A DNA stretch of 64,000 nt from Candidatus Bathyarchaeota archaeon. Its GTDB lineage: Archaea > Thermoproteota > Bathyarchaeia > Bathyarchaeales > Bathycorpusculaceae. Positions 56,647-64,000 of the stretch are shown here, piece by piece. Position 1 is the first letter of the stretch, and the number at the start of each line of letters is the position of its first letter. The stretch spans positions 1,312,001 to 1,376,000 of the forward strand of contig OY970280.1 of NCBI GenBank assembly GCA_963715865.1, in the 5' to 3' direction. Below the pieces are notes generated by a model that saw only the letters and a program-made list of their open reading frames with translations, was not told the DNA's origin and did no database searches. The position numbers and the translations under genes are program-made.

Positions 56647-57009
56647 TTCTCCTCACTCTTCATTGCAAGAGTGATTGCTTGGGCTGTTAAAAGCATTGTT
56701 GACACTTAAACGCTTAAAACTACAATAAAAAAAGACTTTGTTATAGGTTCATTGACTAGTGGTGCTGTTGAAGAAAAGGCTCCCGCAAAGAAGGATAGCC
56801 TCTTTTTAGCTAGTATTTTAACAGTTAAAAAGCGGGTATCCCTCAGACACAGCGAGCACCAACAACATAAACTCTCACCTTATTAATGCTCTAATAGTGT
56901 GATTTGCAGTTTTCACTATACAGAAAGCAAAAATATCCGAGCGCCACACTCTACAATATAACCCAGACTTTGGCAGGTTCAAATTTTGCCAAGAAAAAGG
57001 ATTACCTGT

Positions 57010-57096
57010 GCGGGATTGCCCTAGCCTGGTAGGGGGCAGGCCTGCTAAGTCTGTGGTCGAAAGGCCGCGTGGGTTCAAATCCCACATCCCGCGCCA
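57010..57096 (+). tRNA. tRNA-Ser (anticodon GCT), CCA encoded
   Basis: Acceptor GCGGGAT/ATCCCGC, discriminator G, CCA; anticodon stem CAGGC/GTCTG with loop CTGCTAA; long variable arm; T-loop GGTTCAAATCC. Confidence 0.96.
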
Positions 57097-57368
57097 CGCT
57101 TCTTTTACAAATTAGGGCTTGATTATTGCTTATTTATCCAAATAGGGTGCAATAAACGCTAAGAAATTAGCCAATTTCCAAGTTTATTGGTAAAAAGATT
57201 TAGGGTTTAATTTACACATGCCACAGAAGTCTAAATCATTTGTTCATAAAGTGAGACTTTTCCAACTGAGAATGTTGACGTTGTTTCAAAGTTTGACGTT
57301 GAACAAAACTAATTAGTTTCATTCTTATCAGTATTTAGAATCTATTAAGACACTGGCGGCAAATTGCT

Positions 57369-58262
57369 GTGCATACTCTGGAATTGAATAATGTATCTTC
57401 CGGTTACAATAAGCAAGTCGTCTTGCATGATATCAGCTTCAAACTACACGAGCCCTCAATATATGTTGTTTTAGGGCCAAACGGCGCGGGCAAAACAACT
57501 TTGTTTAGAACAATCGCGGGTATACTTGAGCCATTTAGCGGTAAGGTCCTTCTGGACGACCAAAACATAACCACATCAGGCAAGACGCGAACAAGAATAA
57601 GCTTTCTCTCGCAGTACAACGCAATGCCTGAAGAGATGACTGTGTATAACGCGCTTAAGTTTTACTCTGACATCGAGGGCGGAGATACCGACGAGGTGAT
57701 TGATCTGCTGGATCTTAGCCAACTGAAAAATAAAAGGTTCTCCGATCTTTCACAGGGACAAAAAAAGAGAGCCGCAATCGCAAAGGTGTTTCTTCACGAA
57801 AGCGAGTTGTATTTGCTAGATGAACCCACCGCGAATTTAGACCCAGCAGTTTCAAAAGAAATTCGAGATATTATACTAAAATTAAGTAAAGACAAAATGA
57901 TTCTGTACTCTTCCCATAACCTCTATGAAGCAACCGATATTGGAACATACCTTATTTTAATCAAGAATGGCTCTGTGACATTGTTTGATAAAATCTCAAA
58001 CATTAAACCCAAACAGTTCCGAGTAGGCATCAACGCATCAACAGACATATCTAAAATTATAGACGCCCAACGTGAGGGCGATTATTTTGTTTTGAATGTG
58101 TCTAGCCCTGAGGAAGCAGGGCTTGCTTTGAAGAAATTGGTTGAAAGTGGTGTTTTGGTTACTGAAATGCGTCAGCTTGATAATCCTTTGCAAGAGCTTT
58201 TTGAGTCACCCAATGGAAACGTGGAAAAAACACAAAAGGAGTCACAGCAAGTTGCCAAATAG
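57369..58262 (+). CDS. ABC exporter ATP-binding subunit
   Basis: GPNGAGKT, LSQGQKKR, LLDEPTANLDP, SSHNL. Confidence 0.92.
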   Translation: MHTLELNNVSSGYNKQVVLHDISFKLHEPSIYVVLGPNGAGKTTLFRTIAGILEPFSGKVLLDDQNITTSGKTRTRISFLSQYNAMPEEMTVYNALKFYSDIEGGDTDEVIDLLDLSQLKNKRFSDLSQGQKKRAAIAKVFLHESELYLLDEPTANLDPAVSKEIRDIILKLSKDKMILYSSHNLYEATDIGTYLILIKNGSVTLFDKISNIKPKQFRVGINASTDISKIIDAQREGDYFVLNVSSPEEAGLALKKLVESGVLVTEMRQLDNPLQELFESPNGNVEKTQKESQQVAK

Positions 58263-58923
58263 TACACTGATTTTTGCTAAACGAAGCCTCAGTTTGAGCA
58301 AAATATATTCTGGAGCAGGAATTTTTCTGGCTATCTTTGGAATATTTGTATCAGACGCAATCATCCTTTCTGGTGGAGCGGCTGCACCGTACTTTCTTTT
58401 TCCAGCTGCGTTTATGGCTCTTGGACTTCTAATGTTCACAACGTCTGTTATTCTACTGTACGTCTATGACAAAAATAATGGAGTTTTGGAGTATCTACTT
58501 TCACTTGGCTGGAATCAAAGTGACATCTTTAAGCGTTACTTAAAAGCCGCGCTTTTCCTTGCGCTTACTCTTTTCATTGCTGAATTTGCCGCTAATGTTG
58601 TAGCAAGTGTGATTGCAGGGTCACTCTTAGGTTTAGTGACGTCAGCTTTTACCGCTGCGTTGGGTTTTTCAGCCGTTTCTTTAGTTACAATTGCTATGAT
58701 GGCTTTCAGCTCGTTACAAAAGCAGCGAGTAGGTGCCAATAGTCCTCTTGCTTTGTCGATTGGCGTCGTGGTTATCCTTCCCACGTTTTATATTCCGTTT
58801 CTTTTACCTTTTTCTGCAGCCATCTTAGTTGACCTGTTTATTGCTGGGCTTGCGGGTGGTCTGTCAATTGTGTTGTTGATTTTGTCAAGCAGGCTAATTA
58901 GAAGGGAAAAAATGCTTCCGTAA
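58252..58923 (+). CDS. ABC-2-type permease (about 6 TM)
   Basis: Hydrophobic ORF coupled to the ATPase stop, EYLLSLG motif; start moved from 58141 to TTG 58252. Confidence 0.75.
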   Translation: MPNSTLIFAKRSLSLSKIYSGAGIFLAIFGIFVSDAIILSGGAAAPYFLFPAAFMALGLLMFTTSVILLYVYDKNNGVLEYLLSLGWNQSDIFKRYLKAALFLALTLFIAEFAANVVASVIAGSLLGLVTSAFTAALGFSAVSLVTIAMMAFSSLQKQRVGANSPLALSIGVVVILPTFYIPFLLPFSAAILVDLFIAGLAGGLSIVLLILSSRLIRREKMLP

Positions 58924-58960
58924 ATACCAGGCGACCAACATTGCTTTCTCATATTTCTAA

Positions 58961-59007
58961 CTTTTCGTGTGGAATTTAAACGTGGGTGTAAACCTAACAT
59001 CCCGCGC
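58961..59007 (+). repeat. 47-bp repeat A ending in a degenerate tRNA-Ser 3' end
   Basis: cttttcgtgtggaatttaaacgtgggtgtaaacctaacatcccgcgc; 46/47 identical to 61954-62000; last 27 nt match the tRNA T-arm/acceptor at 22/27. Confidence 0.9.
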
Positions 59008-59294
59008 TTCGCCCCTTTTGCAAAATAGGGGTTAATTATCGTTTATTTGAGCAAATAGAACCAAGAAATTGCTTTTAAGTTATTTGCTCCTGTGGTTTCA
59101 TCGCATAAAAACTATCAACCGTTTAAATAGCACGCAAAGTAGGGAAGTATCTTAATGGAAATAGAATGATTGCGAATAGAATAATGTGTTCTATGTCTTA
59201 GAAGATGTAACTCATTAAATTTTGTCTTAAATATAAGAACCTTCATCATAGAGATTAGACGCTCGGAATAGTAAACGCCACCTTGTGATGCCTA

Positions 59295-60296
59295 TTGATA
59301 GACACGGAAAACTTGACAAAAAAGTTTGGCAACCTTAATCCAATCAACGAACCGGCAGGTCGAAAGAGCGTTGTCAACGTGAATCATCTCCGCAAGCAAT
59401 ACGGCACAACAGTCGCCGTCGACAACGTCTCATTCTCCATTGCCGAAGGCGAGATTTTCGGCATCATAGGACCTAACGGAGCTGGAAAGACAACCGCGGT
59501 TGAATGTATTTCAGGGCTTCGTGTTCCAGACTCGGGTTCCGCAACTGTTTATGACCTTAATCCCAGAGACGACCGTGAGGAACTGTGTAAATACGTTGGA
59601 GTCCAACTCCAAGAAAGCTCATTACCTCCACGTATCAAGGTCGGGGAGGCTCTTGAACTCTTTGCATCTTTCTATCAAAATCCTGTTAATCCAAAGGATT
59701 TACTCGAATCGCTTGGAATCGCTCAAAAAAGTAATGCCAAATTCAAACAACTGTCCGGCGGCCAAAAACAGCGACTTTCAATCGCGCTAGCACTTATTGG
59801 AAATCCAAAGATTGCTATTCTAGATGAACTTACCACTGGGCTTGACCCGGAAGCAAGACGCGAGACTTGGGAACTTATAGAGCGTATTAGGGATCGAGGC
59901 GTGACAGTGATTCTTGTAACGCATTACATGGATGAAGCCGAAAGACTGTGTGACCGACTGGCCTTAATTAATCACGGGAAAGTCGTTGCCCTCGACACTC
60001 CCGCGGCTCTTGCGGCACGCGAAGGCGGTGGCGCACGCATGCAGTTTGTACCTTCTGGACCTGTAGATGATAAGGTTCTGACTGCGTTGCCGGGTGTAAC
60101 TTCGGTTGAACATAAGGGTAGGCGTATCGTTGTTGTCGGTTCTGGTGACCTTACTACACAGGTGCTTTATGCGCTACTAAACGTTGGAGTGCATGCTTCG
60201 GATGTTCAGGTGGAAAACGGCAGTCTTGAAGATGCCTTCGTCAAACTCACACAGACAGACGATAATGCCAGAAAACATGAGGTAGGTCTGCAATGA
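59295..60296 (+). CDS. ABC exporter ATP-binding subunit (DrrA/NodI-like)
   Basis: GPNGAGKT, LSGGQKQR, ILDELTTGLDP, VTHYMDEAERLCDR. Confidence 0.93.
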   Translation: MIDTENLTKKFGNLNPINEPAGRKSVVNVNHLRKQYGTTVAVDNVSFSIAEGEIFGIIGPNGAGKTTAVECISGLRVPDSGSATVYDLNPRDDREELCKYVGVQLQESSLPPRIKVGEALELFASFYQNPVNPKDLLESLGIAQKSNAKFKQLSGGQKQRLSIALALIGNPKIAILDELTTGLDPEARRETWELIERIRDRGVTVILVTHYMDEAERLCDRLALINHGKVVALDTPAALAAREGGGARMQFVPSGPVDDKVLTALPGVTSVEHKGRRIVVVGSGDLTTQVLYALLNVGVHASDVQVENGSLEDAFVKLTQTDDNARKHEVGLQ

Positions 60297-61069
60297 GCGC
60301 ACAAGCTTCTAAAGCGTCAGAACACTATTCCTCCAATCCATTCTGGGAACTGGTCAAGGTCGAGGGGAAACTCGCCCTAAGGGAGCCAATTGGCATAATA
60401 TTTGGCGTCGGACTTCCTGTATTCTTGCTGATTATATTTGGTAGCATTCCTGCCTTCAGACAGACTGTTCCTGGCACAACATTATCAACATTCGAAGTTT
60501 ACATTCCGATTCTTATGATAACTGTGCTGATATTTATTGGACTATTTGGCTTACCTATTCCAATTGCTCGCGACCGTGAGATTGGTTGGCTAAGGCGGAT
60601 CTCTACCACGCCCGTGTCGCCAACCAAGATATTGGCTGCGCAGGTGACAATCAATCTTGTTCTTGCGGCGATATCATTTGCAATACTTACGGCTGGAGGA
60701 GTCTTTTTCTTCGGGGTGAAGGGGCCGTCTGAGATTCTTGGATTCGCTCTTTCGATTGTGCTGGCAACGATTGCAATGTTTTCTTTGGGATTGCTTATTG
60801 CTGCGCTCGCGCCTTCACAGGGGGTTGCTGGAGGTATGGCACAGGGTCTTCTATATCCGCTGTTATTCTTCGCAGGAATTTACGTTCCCATGCAGTTCCT
60901 TCCAGGCTACCTGCAAACAATAAGCAATTTCACTCCAGTTGGAGCTGCAGTTCAGGCTCTTGGAAGCTCGATGCAGGGAACATTTCCTTCTATTATACCG
61001 CTGCTTGTGATGGCTGCTTATGCAGTTTTCTTTGGCTTTGTCGCCGCTCGTTACTTCAGGTGGGAATAA
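60293..61069 (+). CDS. ABC-2 permease (DrrB/NodJ-like)
   Basis: LREP..IFG..LP, DREIGWLRRI..TP, FFAGIYVP, RYFRWE; ATGA-coupled to the ATPase. Confidence 0.9.
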   Translation: MSAQASKASEHYSSNPFWELVKVEGKLALREPIGIIFGVGLPVFLLIIFGSIPAFRQTVPGTTLSTFEVYIPILMITVLIFIGLFGLPIPIARDREIGWLRRISTTPVSPTKILAAQVTINLVLAAISFAILTAGGVFFFGVKGPSEILGFALSIVLATIAMFSLGLLIAALAPSQGVAGGMAQGLLYPLLFFAGIYVPMQFLPGYLQTISNFTPVGAAVQALGSSMQGTFPSIIPLLVMAAYAVFFGFVAARYFRWE

Positions 61070-61169
61070 GCATGGCGCTTGCTATCAGTAGTTAGCTATA
61101 TACCTGTTATGGAGGCACAGAAAGTCTTTAAAATAAACGTTAAGATATTGGAGCAAAAGGGTGCCATAT

Positions 61170-61313
61170 GTGAAGCTTCATTCAATTCCTGATCTTGAAG
61201 GTCGACCTGCCGGCAACTTTGAAAGAAATGTCAAGAAACCTCCTACCACTGTTCGAAAGAAAGTCATGCAAGAAGCATCTGTGCTTTTTGACCGGACAAA
61301 AATACGCGGATAG
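61170..61313 (+). CDS. 47-aa putative antitoxin for the downstream GNAT (not in the ORF track)
   Basis: GTG start after AAAGGGTG; MKLHSIPDLEGRPAGNFERNVKKPPTTVRKKVMQEASVLFDRTKIRG; stops 26 nt before the GNAT ATG. Confidence 0.55.
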   Translation: MKLHSIPDLEGRPAGNFERNVKKPPTTVRKKVMQEASVLFDRTKIRG

Positions 61314-61339
61314 TAACTGAGGTAGGTACCAGATTAAGA

Positions 61340-61879
61340 ATGTCTTCCAAATTCACCCCGAGTGGTCTGTCAGTCAAAAAACTAGATGATCGGACAGACC
61401 TTTCAAGTTTTAATTGCAACGAGAATGATGAGCTAAAGTTAGACGAGTTTATCCATGATGAGGCTCTAAATTTACAAAAAGGAAGCATGGGAACTACCTA
61501 TCTGTTTTACAACGAGGACAAAGTAGTTGGTTATGTAACGATATTAATGAGCTGCATCGGTGTGAACCTGAACAAACCGCGTTCGGACACTTCTAGACAC
61601 AAGCTGCGCAAATTGCACTATCCAGCTCTTTATCTAGCGAAAATAGCAGTAGAAAACAGATTTAGACGGCGATATATTGGAAAATTGATGCTCTTTTGGT
61701 GCATCGGCTTTGCACTAAAACTGTCAGAGGAAATAGGATGTCGTTTCATATTCTTGGTTACCAAAGGGGAATCTCGAGTTAAATTTTATCATGAATGTGG
61801 TTTTCAAGAAAGCAGTTTCACCCTTAAAAAAAAGACTGGCAAAGAAGAATGGAAGATGATGTACTTTCAATTAGTCTAA
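61340..61879 (+). CDS. GNAT N-acetyltransferase, AtaT/TacT toxin-like
   Basis: SSFNC...LDEFIHDEAL, TTYLF..VVGYVTI, YPALYLAKIAV..FRRRYIG, GCRFIFL, FYHECGF. Confidence 0.8.
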   Translation: MSSKFTPSGLSVKKLDDRTDLSSFNCNENDELKLDEFIHDEALNLQKGSMGTTYLFYNEDKVVGYVTILMSCIGVNLNKPRSDTSRHKLRKLHYPALYLAKIAVENRFRRRYIGKLMLFWCIGFALKLSEEIGCRFIFLVTKGESRVKFYHECGFQESSFTLKKKTGKEEWKMMYFQLV

Positions 61880-61953
61880 ATAACCGCGATTAAGGCTCTG
61901 AACCCTTTTGGATCTGGAACCCAGCGGTTCCAACAAATTCCGATTATCCATAG

Positions 61954-62002
61954 CTTTTCGTGTGGAATTTAAACGTGGGTGTAAAGCTAACATCCCGCGC
62001 CA
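61954..62002 (+). repeat. Repeat B, copy of repeat A ending in GCGCCA like the tRNA
   Basis: cttttcgtgtggaatttaaacgtgggtgtaaagctaacatcccgcgcca. Confidence 0.9.
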
Positions 62003-62029
62003 ACTTTGCAATTGTAGCTTAAAACGGGT

Positions 62030-62539
62030 TTATGAGTAGTGTTGTTTGATGAATTTGGCGAGGTTGATGATTTCGAGGTCGCTGTTGCATCTTGGGCAGG
62101 TTTTTTGTATTTCGGGTGCTTTTGCGCCGATTTTCAGCGGTGCTCCACAGTGGCAGCAGTAGTATGTTAGGGTTTGTCCTTTCTCCGAGAGGGTTTTGAC
62201 GAGGGCGGCTGCTTCTTTTTGCGTCTCGGTTAATTGTTTATCTTTCTTTTTAGCAGGATTTGCTTTTTTCTCGGTGGAGTAGTCTTTGCAGGTTTCTGCT
62301 TGAGCAAAGTACGTGTTAAACCCAACCTTCGCAGGCACCAACGCTTTCCCAGTCTTCTTGCAGGACTCCTCATCGAGGTAGCCGCAGTCTTCACAGGTTT
62401 TCTTCTTGTCATACTCCTTCCGAAGCGTCCACAAGCACTCCGCACAATACAGCCGCTCTTCACCATTGATACTCACGGTTAAGCCTGAACCAGAGAAGGA
62501 TTTTTTGCAACCGCAACATTCAAACCGCATAGTGTTCAC
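62030..62539 (-). CDS. Multi-zinc-finger (CxxC-rich) protein
   Basis: CCGC, CAEC, CEDC, CCHC and CPRC pairs with a Lys-rich spacer. Confidence 0.72.
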   Translation of the reverse strand: MNTMRFECCGCKKSFSGSGLTVSINGEERLYCAECLWTLRKEYDKKKTCEDCGYLDEESCKKTGKALVPAKVGFNTYFAQAETCKDYSTEKKANPAKKKDKQLTETQKEAAALVKTLSEKGQTLTYYCCHCGAPLKIGAKAPEIQKTCPRCNSDLEIINLAKFIKQHYS

Positions 62540-62704
62540 GTGAAAACTACTATTTGGTCAGGCTTTTATTTATTGTTTGATTTAGCATTTTGTGGAAATG
62601 CCTTGTTCACGAGCATAACAGCGAGGAATTCAGCCAAAAATGCCCAAGATGTACTTGATGTTTTCTATCTGTCCTCATCACGTCGTTTAAACAGCTGAAT
62701 TTTC

Positions 62705-63556
62705 TTATTGTAAGCGTTGCTTATGCACCGATAGGTATCTTCTGACAAAGTAGGTCACGAAGCCTTCTTCAGGTCGCTGCAGAGCTTTGTAGTAGGAGTT
62801 TCTCCTCTTGTATTCTATTATGAGCATGGGATAACCGTTTTTCCACAAGATAAAATTCATTAGAAGTCTGCCTATTCTGCCGTTACCATCGCCGAAGGGA
62901 TGTGTTTTTTCAAACATGTAATGCGCCCTTCCTGCTACCTCGACGGGATTCAGTCTTGATTCATTCACGAACGTTATTAGTTGCTTCACTAGCTTTTCCA
63001 AGTCACGCCAATCGGGTGCCACGTAAAGTCCCACTCTTACAACATAGTTTCTAAATTGCCCAGCGATGTCTGGTTTTGTCTCTTCGAAAATATCTTTATG
63101 CCATCTCAACAAAAGCCTCTCCGATATTTTCTCGTCCGTTTTTAGCATTCCTAAAAACACTTTTGCGTGAGATTCGGTTTCCCTGATGTCCTTGAGAGGC
63201 TTACTTGGAGCGACTTTATCTTCCAGTATTTGCCTTGCTTCCTCAAGCGTTATAGTGGATCCTTCAATCGCGTTAGTGTTGTAAGTAAAAGCTATTGCTA
63301 TCTCCTGAAGTTCCTTTTCTTTTGCAGATTCAGGATACCTTGCCCATTCTTTCTGATAGCGATTTTTTATTTTTTCCAGTTTTTCTGACAGAGCATCTTT
63401 AGCCTCAAGCATGAGTTTAGCTTTGATTTCTTCGATGTTGTCTGGCACTTTTTTGCCTAAATATAGTTCTTTGGTGACGACTTCTCCGTCTTTTCTGAAC
63501 GAGTGTTGCAGGTAAAAATACTTTGATTTACCCTTCTTTCTTTCAACAATGTGCAT
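62705..63556 (-). CDS. Fic-domain protein (class II, with auto-inhibitory helix)
   Basis: HPFGDGNGRIGR catalytic motif; TNAIEG inhibitory motif; short beta-rich N-terminal extension (KYFYLQHSFRKDG..YLG). Confidence 0.92.
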   Translation of the reverse strand: MHIVERKKGKSKYFYLQHSFRKDGEVVTKELYLGKKVPDNIEEIKAKLMLEAKDALSEKLEKIKNRYQKEWARYPESAKEKELQEIAIAFTYNTNAIEGSTITLEEARQILEDKVAPSKPLKDIRETESHAKVFLGMLKTDEKISERLLLRWHKDIFEETKPDIAGQFRNYVVRVGLYVAPDWRDLEKLVKQLITFVNESRLNPVEVAGRAHYMFEKTHPFGDGNGRIGRLLMNFILWKNGYPMLIIEYKRRNSYYKALQRPEEGFVTYFVRRYLSVHKQRLQ

Positions 63557-63691
63557 AAGCCTTTTACCATTACATCTCGTATAAATTTTTCGTTTTCATC
63601 AACTTCTGTAATGGTAATAGTTCCTTTACGTTTCGGGATTTTAACGAACATGAATACGAATAGAAACCAAAACAAACGACCAAATTCCACG

Positions 63692-63747
63692 CTGCTAAGT
63701 ATATGGTCGAAAGGGCCGCGTGGGTTCAAATCCCACATCCCATGCCA
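63692..63747 (+). repeat. attR-like copy of the tRNA-Ser 3' half, starting in the anticodon loop
   Basis: ctgctaagtatatggtcgaaagggccgcgtgggttcaaatcccacatcccatgcca versus tRNA 57042-57096; about 4 substitutions and a 1-nt indel. Confidence 0.93.
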
Positions 63748-63783
63748 CTTTTAAAATTTTAATTAAACAACTGAGCTTTTTCG

Positions 63784-64000
63784 TTAAACTACGAAATGAG
63801 TTACGCCAGTAAGAATGTATTGGATTGCAATGGCAGCAATAAGCAACGCCATAACCCTTGCTATAACTAAGGAGCCTGTTTTGCCTAAAAACCTGTAAAT
63901 GCCGTTTATGAACCTAAGAATGACCCATGTTAAGGATAACACAATTAAAACCGCCAGAATCGCTGTTACCGTACCGTAGGATTGAAGATTAAATATGGTT
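63784..64000 (-). CDS. MarC family membrane protein, C-terminal part (enters from beyond the window)
   Basis: Hand translation ...RFLGKTGSLVIARVMALLIAAIAIQYILTGVTHFVV*, the MarC C-terminal signature. Not in the ORF track. Confidence 0.82.
   Translation of the reverse strand, partial: TIFNLQSYGTVTAILAVLIVLSLTWVILRFINGIYRFLGKTGSLVIARVMALLIAAIAIQYILTGVTHFVV

Follow-up and report, generated by a model that had tools for sequence, protein, structure and literature searches.

Bathyarchaeia rank with the most numerous archaea of sediments and peat. They have hardly been brought into culture, and their ways of exchanging genes are poorly known. Here, we analysed a 64,000-nucleotide (nt) stretch from the genome of a peat-soil Candidatus Bathyarchaeota archaeon (contig OY970280.1), hereafter called the window (G000:1312001-1376000), and in particular the interval between its tRNA-Ser(GCT) gene and marC, where a series of small, putatively mobile gene cassettes is found. 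The source genome, G000, is one contig of 2.35 Mb with archaeal introns in many of its tRNA genes, and its relatives are metagenome-assembled genomes (MAGs) of Bathyarchaeia from peat and soil. Positions without a prefix are those of the window. The sole tRNA in the window, tRNA-Ser(GCT) at 57010-57096 (ARAGORN), is followed by a 1.9-kb cassette, a 3.0-kb cassette, a 1.7-kb segment and a 57-nt true copy of the tRNA 3′ half. The features of the interval, with open reading frames (ORFs) and protein lengths in amino acids (aa), are as follows.

57010-57096, + strand: tRNA-Ser(GCT), the docking site (ARAGORN; both inner repeats share its core; joint of the empty site seen at 57097 in four metagenome runs).
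57097-57145, + strand: type-1 left arm of cassette 1 (77% match to 59008-59058; nhmmer E 6e-22; recurs after tRNA-Leu(GAG)).
57369-58923, + strand: cargo of cassette 1, an ABC ATPase (57369-58262) and a 260-aa ORF (58141-58923).
58962-59007, + strand: right arm A with a 9-nt core, the junction of cassettes 1 and 2 (repeat search, nhmmer, pattern scans, junction-window conservation).
59008-59058, + strand: type-1 left arm of cassette 2 (repeat search; nhmmer).
59295-61069, + strand: cargo of cassette 2, a DrrA-like ABC ATPase (59295-60296) and an ABC-2 permease (60293-61069) (Pfam, NCBIfam).
61161-61879, + strand: variable insert in cassette 2, a 50-aa ORF (61161-61313) and a GNAT acetyltransferase (61340-61879) (Pfam Acetyltransf_1).
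61955-62000, + strand: right arm B with core, the end of cassette 2 (96% identity to arm A over 50 nt; nhmmer E 4e-22).
62030-62539, - strand: zinc-ribbon protein gene, 169 aa (weak Pfam DZR match; homologues in 6 loci; synteny).
62705-63556, - strand: Fic-domain protein gene, 283 aa (Pfam Fic 2.1e-21; homologues in 11 loci).
63692-63748, + strand: true tRNA-Ser 3′-half copy from anticodon loop to 3′ end, the outer right boundary of the insertion (91-92% identity, 57 nt).
63784-64000, - strand: marC, native chromosomal flank (Pfam MarC 1.4e-9; kept in 36/41 same-genus genomes).

Two DrrA/DrrB-like ABC-2 exporters are encoded in the interval, as judged by Pfam and NCBIfam. The ABC ATPase of cassette 1 (Pfam ABC_tran, 1.4e-30; NCBIfam DrrA/GldA-like) adjoins the 260-aa ORF, which is without a family match and probably encodes its permease. 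The GNAT protein of cassette 2 gives weak full-length matches to the KacT, AtaT and TacT structures, and together with the 50-aa ORF it probably forms a toxin-antitoxin pair. In an otherwise 97.5%-identical cassette on the peat contig L188, this pair is absent and other DNA stands in place of 61083-61950; the pair has the look of a later addition to this cassette. The third unit differs in type and is heterogeneous, consisting of a Fic cassette with the true tRNA half and the zinc-ribbon gene. A recurrent cassette of ~1.2 kb carries the Fic gene as its cargo and has a true tRNA half at its end; in L130, L050 and L188 it is flanked by tRNA copies. The zinc-ribbon gene directly adjoins marC in the genomes G201 and G210. 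A preliminary description of this locus, made from the sequence of the window, had proposed three units of 1.9, 3.0 and 1.7 kb carrying exporters, a GNAT pair and Zn-finger plus Fic cargo, and Pfam and NCBIfam bear out this layout; its view of the units as cassettes stands insofar as they are discrete, integrase-less and equipped with related attachment arms, and has to be qualified for the third.

That description had also found no integrase in the island, and our searches agree. From the tRNA to marC, there is neither a PF00589 match nor tblastn similarity to a panel of seven integrases; tblastn with integrases gave zero similarity across 56800-64000 and no flanking fragments of the int(N)/int(C) type. 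From the NurA-like gene to marC, integrase similarity is absent, and the nearest integrase match found in the genome lies more than 200 kb away. A split integrase of the SSV type within the window was considered and rejected, as the sole open reverse frame across junction A overlaps the permease gene and is without integrase similarity.

We then compared the repeated sequences that divide the interval. The stretches 58958-59007 and 61951-62000 are 96% identical over 50 nt, with each only 60-68% identical to the tRNA, and 57068-57145 matches 58981-59058 at 77% over 78 nt, the shared tRNA end included. The repeats far exceed what chance would give: in the whole 2.35-Mb genome, nhmmer profiles of both arms match exactly three sites each (E 1e-16 to 1e-24). 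Those reported previously at 58981-59007, 61974-62002 and 63692-63747, together with the arm match of about 37/48, are real. Right arm A is 37 nt long, made up of TTTTCGTGTGG and a 26-nt pseudo T-arm, and is followed by the 9-nt core ATCCCGCGC; the arm resembles, in crippled form, the variable arm and T-arm of a class II tRNA (tRNA-Ser). The core shared with the docking site corresponds to the last ~11 nt of tRNA-Ser(GCT), namely the T-stem end, the acceptor 3′ strand, the discriminator and C. The left arm of cassette 1 has a T-tract immediately 3′ of the tRNA.

The third arm pair of the genome lies at tRNA-Leu(GAG) (G000:2240291-2240376). There, the same left arm follows the tRNA, and 7 kb of cargo ends in the same right arm, whose last 9 nt are CCTCCGCAC, the Leu acceptor 3′ strand, in place of the ATCCCGCGC of the Ser array. 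Because the Leu array combines the same arm with a Leu core, the inner sites are a conserved element end plus a target-specific core, and not the decayed tRNA copies for which they had been taken. At Ser as at Leu, 11 nt are common to both junctions and identity is confined to the tRNA 3′ end; the crossover would lie in ~11 nt of the acceptor end, and not in the anticodon loop as suggested earlier. The Leu cargo comprises a peroxiredoxin, the catalase-peroxidase KatG, a Fur-family regulator, an insertion sequence (IS) transposase and a PNPOx-like protein, and the array (G000:C1:2240291-2248075; L017:2291-10075) ends with vapBC and a true 60-nt tRNA-Leu 3′ copy of 98% identity.

The right arm recurs across the class. 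Of 201 genomes from the GTDB family of the source genome, 19 contain a 26-nt pattern, AATTTRAACGTG..T.TRRA.CTAAC, and these represent 10 of 70 genera; the reversed control gave 0 matches in the same 201 genomes. The pattern is also present in 61 stretches of the GTDB species set, nearly all labelled Bathyarchaeia or Bathyarchaeota (four SMAG bins under other names that hold it may be mis-binned), and in at least 120 metagenome stretches, for 186 distinct right-arm instances in total. A scan of viral contigs for the pattern gave 0 matches, and hence no viral carrier was found. Across 182 distinct junction windows, the conserved block reads TTTTCGYGTGR followed by the 26-mer and stops abruptly 37 nt upstream of the core, where the cargo starts. 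The sequence 3′ of the core is more varied: the type-1 left arm in 53 windows, a second left-arm type beginning CATTTCCAAATTCAGCC in 24 and other sequence in 105. In 48 of the 59 instances that have a same-strand tRNA upstream, the core fits the T-stem end and acceptor strand of this tRNA with at most one mismatch. Ser and Leu tRNAs make up nearly all targets, namely Ser(GCT), Ser(GGA), Ser(TGA), Leu(GAG), Leu(CAG) and Leu(TAA); a few intron-bearing ARAGORN calls labelled Gly, Phe or Arg have 3′ ends of Leu or Ser type, and at the one apparent tRNA-Val target the core mismatches its tRNA. The search for the repeat and arm that the preliminary description had proposed beyond the locus has therefore turned up copies in the genome, throughout the class and in metagenomes.

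In a tRNA-Arg(CCT) array headed by a member of a ~295-aa integrase family (L286:9518-13443; G181:C9), the T-arm/acceptor copies are preceded by another conserved right arm, GCGGGTGAYATCTCCAC..., which is also present in a tRNA-Leu(TAG) array (L298:18074-18130). Several arm families seem to exist.

We delimited 90 bounded cassettes, taking a tRNA, the previous junction or a true T-arm copy as the left edge and a right arm plus core as the right edge. Their median length is 1.9 kb (range 0.18-8.6 kb), and each unit is bounded by a left arm and by a right arm with core, so that flanking sites of the attachment (att) type are present; even units of only 0.18-1.2 kb retain both arms. Integrase similarity is absent from 88 of the 90 (tblastn, seven-integrase panel), and the other two are composite intervals. 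Clustering of 1,666 ORFs returned ABC ATPases (19 loci), Fic proteins (11), heliorhodopsins (6) and zinc-ribbon proteins (6) as the commonest clusters, with no gene common to all cassettes and no candidate recombinase. Cassettes hold 2-4 genes, the first of which is preceded by about 250 nt of non-coding sequence, and the Fic and zinc-ribbon units lie on the opposite strand. Heliorhodopsin genes, usually beside a SOUL haem-binding protein gene, occur in right-arm loci at L051:379-1798 and five others, and heliorhodopsin may travel as a cassette.

Within the genus, the flanks of the interval are conserved (upstream flank in 37/41 genomes, marC flank in 36/41), and the tRNA-to-marC interval is different in each same-genus relative fetched. 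G215 has cassette 1 at 85.5% identity, no cassette 2 and other units next to it. The interval of G225 consists of just 1.6 kb and a true half copy; in G221, whose flanks are 93-94% identical, the right arm of another cassette directly adjoins the native marC flank; the interval of G218 and of G231 contains no arms. Relatives of cassette 1 occupy position 1 in L083 and L130 and position 2 in L110. In all four peat metagenome runs, we detected the exact empty site, in which 57097 is joined to 63784 through 31 diverged native-flank letters, the joint picking up in the flank immediately past the 63692-63748 copy. A contig of one run (X3) has a true T-loop immediately before 61990, and so hints at a variant in which cassettes 1 and 2 are missing and the tRNA adjoins the third unit. 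The preliminary description would have been reduced to a single old, decayed island by an invariant interval and a lack of other repeat copies; the interval is instead highly variable, and copies abound. Read cover was absent from 61120-61839 in the four runs, from which alone we conclude nothing, and a joint 57500->59925 was discarded as unreliable, since it lies between two paralogous ATPase genes with 26 letters on the short side.

The clearest indication of recent change comes from L188. There, the left arm and exporter of cassette 2 (58981-61082) lie directly behind tRNA-Ser and are 97.5% identical to the window, compared with 91.5% for the upstream flank and 89.5% for the zinc-ribbon gene. 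After the exporter follow a right arm, the Fic cassette, a 79-nt tRNA copy and the zinc-ribbon gene, an order unlike that of the window. Cassette 2 is accordingly first in the L188 array and second in the window, with the GNAT pair replaced and an integrase in neither copy. Because of its 97.5% identity against ~90% in the flanks and its different array position, at least cassette 2 appears, on sequence comparison, to have been moved or exchanged recently. The preliminary view of repeated loading has to be changed for cassette 1, which is old and has diverged like the flanks.

The same data bear on an explanation in which, once DNA has been taken up, homologous recombination exchanges the cassettes, anchored by the tRNA and arms and with no site-specific recombinase at work today. 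On the contig L108, junction regions, among them 58915-59339, are kept at ~90% identity around unrelated cargo, as such swapping would produce; metagenome depth is in line with it, being greatest at the arms and low across the cargo, and homologous recombination between the two 50-nt repeats could delete cassette 2. The arms are, however, just 37-50 nt long, unit boundaries fall exactly at the core, and one and the same arm occurs with different tRNAs, its core fitting each of them, which points to site-specific retargeting. We therefore consider homologous swapping a poor prospect as the general explanation.

The genome encodes several tyrosine recombinases, none of them near the Ser or Leu array. 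A 395-aa integrase beside a primase-helicase gene (G000:933161-934348) was tried as a partner and dropped: its family is present in 150 of the 201 genomes, and 15 of the relatives closest to it are not consistently beside Ser/Leu tRNAs or arms. This integrase is 44% identical to one located 2.7 kb from a right arm in L214. Its gene follows that of an 849-aa primase-helicase (D5_N/DUF5906) in a stretch, G000:C1:930610-934806 (L270:4610-8806), that is a separate integrated element module; att sites for it were not found. Nearby, the gene for RNase P RNA has a 4.5-kb element with a 306-aa tyrosine integrase inserted at its 3′ end (G000:C1:935614-940468; L270:9614-14468); a 33-nt direct repeat of 94% identity, which takes in the last part of this gene, flanks the element.

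The ~295-aa integrase family is the likely enzyme, being linked to the cassettes by co-occurrence in at least three independent arrays and by a shared target, which is not proof. Its members on the JGI contig L250 and in the MAG G194 (L065) share 64-69% identity. In L065, an integrase module and an att remnant come after tRNA-Ser(GCT), and next to them lie a type-1 left arm and a cassette of 7 kb with a right arm at its end. In L290, from a Danish soil MAG, tRNA-Ser(GCT) is followed by a 7.2-kb element with an antisense integrase, a type-1 left-arm cassette with right arm, and a type-2 left arm; the integrase begins inside the antisense acceptor sequence, and L250 has the same arrangement. In all three loci, non-autonomous units with type-1 or type-2 left arms and right arms stand in tandem with an integrase-bearing element at the same site, and the L192 array contains a fragment of the integrase. 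The loci L292-294 hold a 6.7-kb element of this kind at tRNA-Ser(GCT), again with the integrase start in antisense acceptor sequence and with the right arm absent from the contig, and L295 has the integrase directly 3′ of tRNA-Ser(GCT) in the HerA-NurA context of the window. Other members follow tRNA-Leu(CAG), tRNA-Leu(TAG) and tRNA-Arg(CCT), some of them heading arrays with other conserved right arms. The start and first ~9 codons of the integrase gene are antisense to a tRNA acceptor/T-arm copy at L250:2187-2230, L290:10001-10030 and L292:1369-1400. As the gene start lies within the att copy at the right end of the element, integration would part the gene from the upstream sequence it has in the circular form; in junctions of L286 and L287 rebuilt in silico, the integrase frame is open through T-arm and core. 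An att site within the integrase reading frame was found for this candidate in relatives only, with the overlap limited to the first 10-40 codons.

The source genome has no intact copy of this family, only C-terminal fragments. Five of them (G000:C1: 476921-477145, 1106978-1107241, 437842-438030, 309646-309969 and 942551-942823) match only its last ~75-110 residues, at 41-59% identity, and one of the five is found on the opposite strand 43 nt past tRNA-Cys. The five may be remnants left by decay, or a small family of genes in its own right. Such fragments could fit an explanation in which the cassettes are the decayed stumps of successive self-integrated, integrase-bearing elements and nothing is mobilised in trans. 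Tandem re-use of tRNA sites followed by decay is well known (PMC6563490; bioRxiv 10.1101/2020.12.28.424599), integrase C-terminal fragments lie near tRNA-Cys and tRNA-Arg(TCT) in this genome, an integrase fragment is found within the array of L192, and cassette 1 is old. Against this explanation, 88 of 90 cassettes are without a trace of integrase and yet end in a nearly invariant 37-nt arm over many genera, the smallest units retain both arms, and cassette 2, at 97.5% against ~90% in its flanks, is integrase-less in both copies. We regard this explanation as unlikely, though of somewhat greater weight than homologous swapping.

Taken together, the interval is in our view probably made up of small, non-autonomous integrative cassettes that stand in tandem behind tRNA-Ser(GCT), docked at its 3′ end, and are mobilised in trans. 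The main cassette type consists of a ~50-nt left arm, cargo, the conserved 37-nt right arm and a 9-11-nt core that is the same as the acceptor 3′ strand of the target. A trans-supplied tyrosine integrase, likely of the ~295-aa family whose gene overlaps its own att site and is found in arrays with cassettes in relatives, would join the arm-core-arm of a circular cassette to the tRNA 3′ end or to an existing junction, presumably with crossover within the ~11-nt core at the acceptor end. New units would stack up and may be lost again, and the T-tract of the left arm could terminate the tRNA transcript. In this reading, an old cassette 1 stands beside a recently exchanged cassette 2, and the Fic cassette with its true tRNA half stems from an event with a longer att. 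As the genome has no intact ~295-aa integrase, the array is probably not changing now. That recombination takes place, and in which direction, we infer.

Several observations weigh against mobilisation in trans. No recombination product was observed unambiguously: two joints that go back, 62003->58962 and 63751->57043, both lie within repeats, were seen in a single run and have a short side of just 31-34 letters, and are unusable as circular junctions. Cassette 1 in G215 is as divergent as its flanks (85.5% versus 86%), which speaks for long vertical inheritance, and the L108 junctions kept around other cargo could also have arisen by homologous exchange. Several integrase C-terminal fragments near tRNAs indicate that integrase-bearing elements do decay in this genome, and integrase-bearing members are rare, at about 4 of ~200 loci. 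Co-occurrence is weak as well, the motif being present in 2 of 4 sampled genomes with a ~295-aa integrase (>=60% identity) versus 18 of 200 overall; these numbers are too few and too phylogenetically clustered, and we dropped phyletic co-occurrence as support.

Elsewhere in the genome, small tRNA-adjacent intervals with 19-30-nt tRNA 3′-end copies are found at Lys(CTT), Lys(TTT), Ala(TGC) and Val(TAC) (G000:C1: 413834-417208; 1525493-1532447; 1731489-1740367; 1903945-1905406), with none of the genome's integrase matches inside them. Hotspot behaviour may be general in this genome.

The 37-nt arm with its tRNA-matched core is a simple signature that marks about 190 small cargo units, which carry exporters, toxin-antitoxin pairs, catalase, peroxiredoxin and heliorhodopsin and differ between close relatives. 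The conservation of one end signal across the class suggests a shared accessory gene pool that is mobilised in trans. If so, the cassettes would offer a tractable explanation of strain-level variation in gene content in this class, a compact archaeal att/integrase pair with possible use as a genetic tool, and a second, independent route to the integron-type solution of the cassette array; if not, the arrays would still be a reproducible hotspot of gene turnover. More tentatively, and with less confidence than doubt, we propose that Bathyarchaeia run a class-wide cassette exchange that is integron-like in function and built from other parts, namely Ser/Leu tRNA docking, a signal of 37-nt arm and retargetable core, and an intermittent engine in the form of a small integrase, with efflux, toxin-antitoxin, oxidative-stress and rhodopsin genes as a community pool.

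The literature that was searched contains no description of this cassette family, and the closest known systems each share some of its traits. With integrons, including those of archaeal MAGs, it has in common arrays of small cassettes, a repeated recombination element and a single docking site. The differences are the lack of an adjacent intI, of an attC-like folded site and of common promoter logic, and docking at a tRNA 3′ end. The preliminary description had called the array integron-like, a label that we do not retain, given the lack of an adjacent integrase and of an attC-like hairpin and the multi-gene cassettes with their own upstream regions. A true integron-like platform, with a fixed site at which the host's own dedicated integrase takes up promoterless cassettes and with a common promoter to express them, would find some encouragement in the repeated junction element of the array and in G194 (L065), where an integrase stands at the array head beside the tRNA. 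However, an integrase is adjacent neither to the window array nor to most others, and the integrase modules look mobile themselves. A hairpin of the attC type, sought in single-stranded DNA folds of the junctions, was not found, the junctions folding no better than shuffled sequence (z -0.70, +0.23, +1.20). Promoterless, single-ORF cassettes in one orientation are likewise not what the window contains, since cassettes have 2-4 genes on either strand and upstream regions of 200-300 nt. Such a platform was already disfavoured and is, in our estimate, highly improbable; the array is not an integron.

Among att sites of archaeal elements, that of SNJ2 is 14 nt long and of the short tRNA 3′-end type, and the SSV-type att lies inside the int gene (PMC8371274, PMC7253208). 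The cassettes resemble SNJ2 in their short identity block, which spans just ~11 nt of the acceptor end, and the candidate ~295-aa integrase resembles the SSV type in having its att in the 5′ end of its own gene. Unlike the SSV type, the window cassettes are without int(N)/int(C) halves, and the candidate att overlaps only the first 10-40 codons; the likeness to both types is one of att placement.

In the tycheposon islands of Prochlorococcus, cargo units stack at tRNA genes between partial tRNA copies, with older insertions pushed outward by newer ones and with niche-adaptive genes as content (bioRxiv 10.1101/2020.12.28.424599). The stacking of cargo units at tRNA genes is shared with the array described here. 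Tycheposons carry their own tyrosine recombinase, however, and integrase-less pieces there are seen as remnants, whereas here the integrase-less form is dominant and conserved, and the arm is no plain partial tRNA.

Finally, the cis-mobilisable elements (CIMEs) and accretion described in streptococci involve att-flanked elements without recombination genes, in tandem with related integrase-bearing elements (PMC5704250, PMC7563491). The likeness lies in att-flanked, integrase-less units in tandem at one site; in behaviour, the array comes nearest to these elements and to the tycheposon islands. In contrast to CIMEs, the cassettes are archaeal, sit at the 3′ end of class II tRNAs and are much smaller (median 1.9 kb), with a dedicated 37-nt pseudo-tRNA arm, a retargetable core and multi-unit arrays over many genera. 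By our reading, the cassettes are of the non-autonomous integrative kind, and are notable for their pseudo-tRNA arm, their retargetable core and their spread across Bathyarchaeia.

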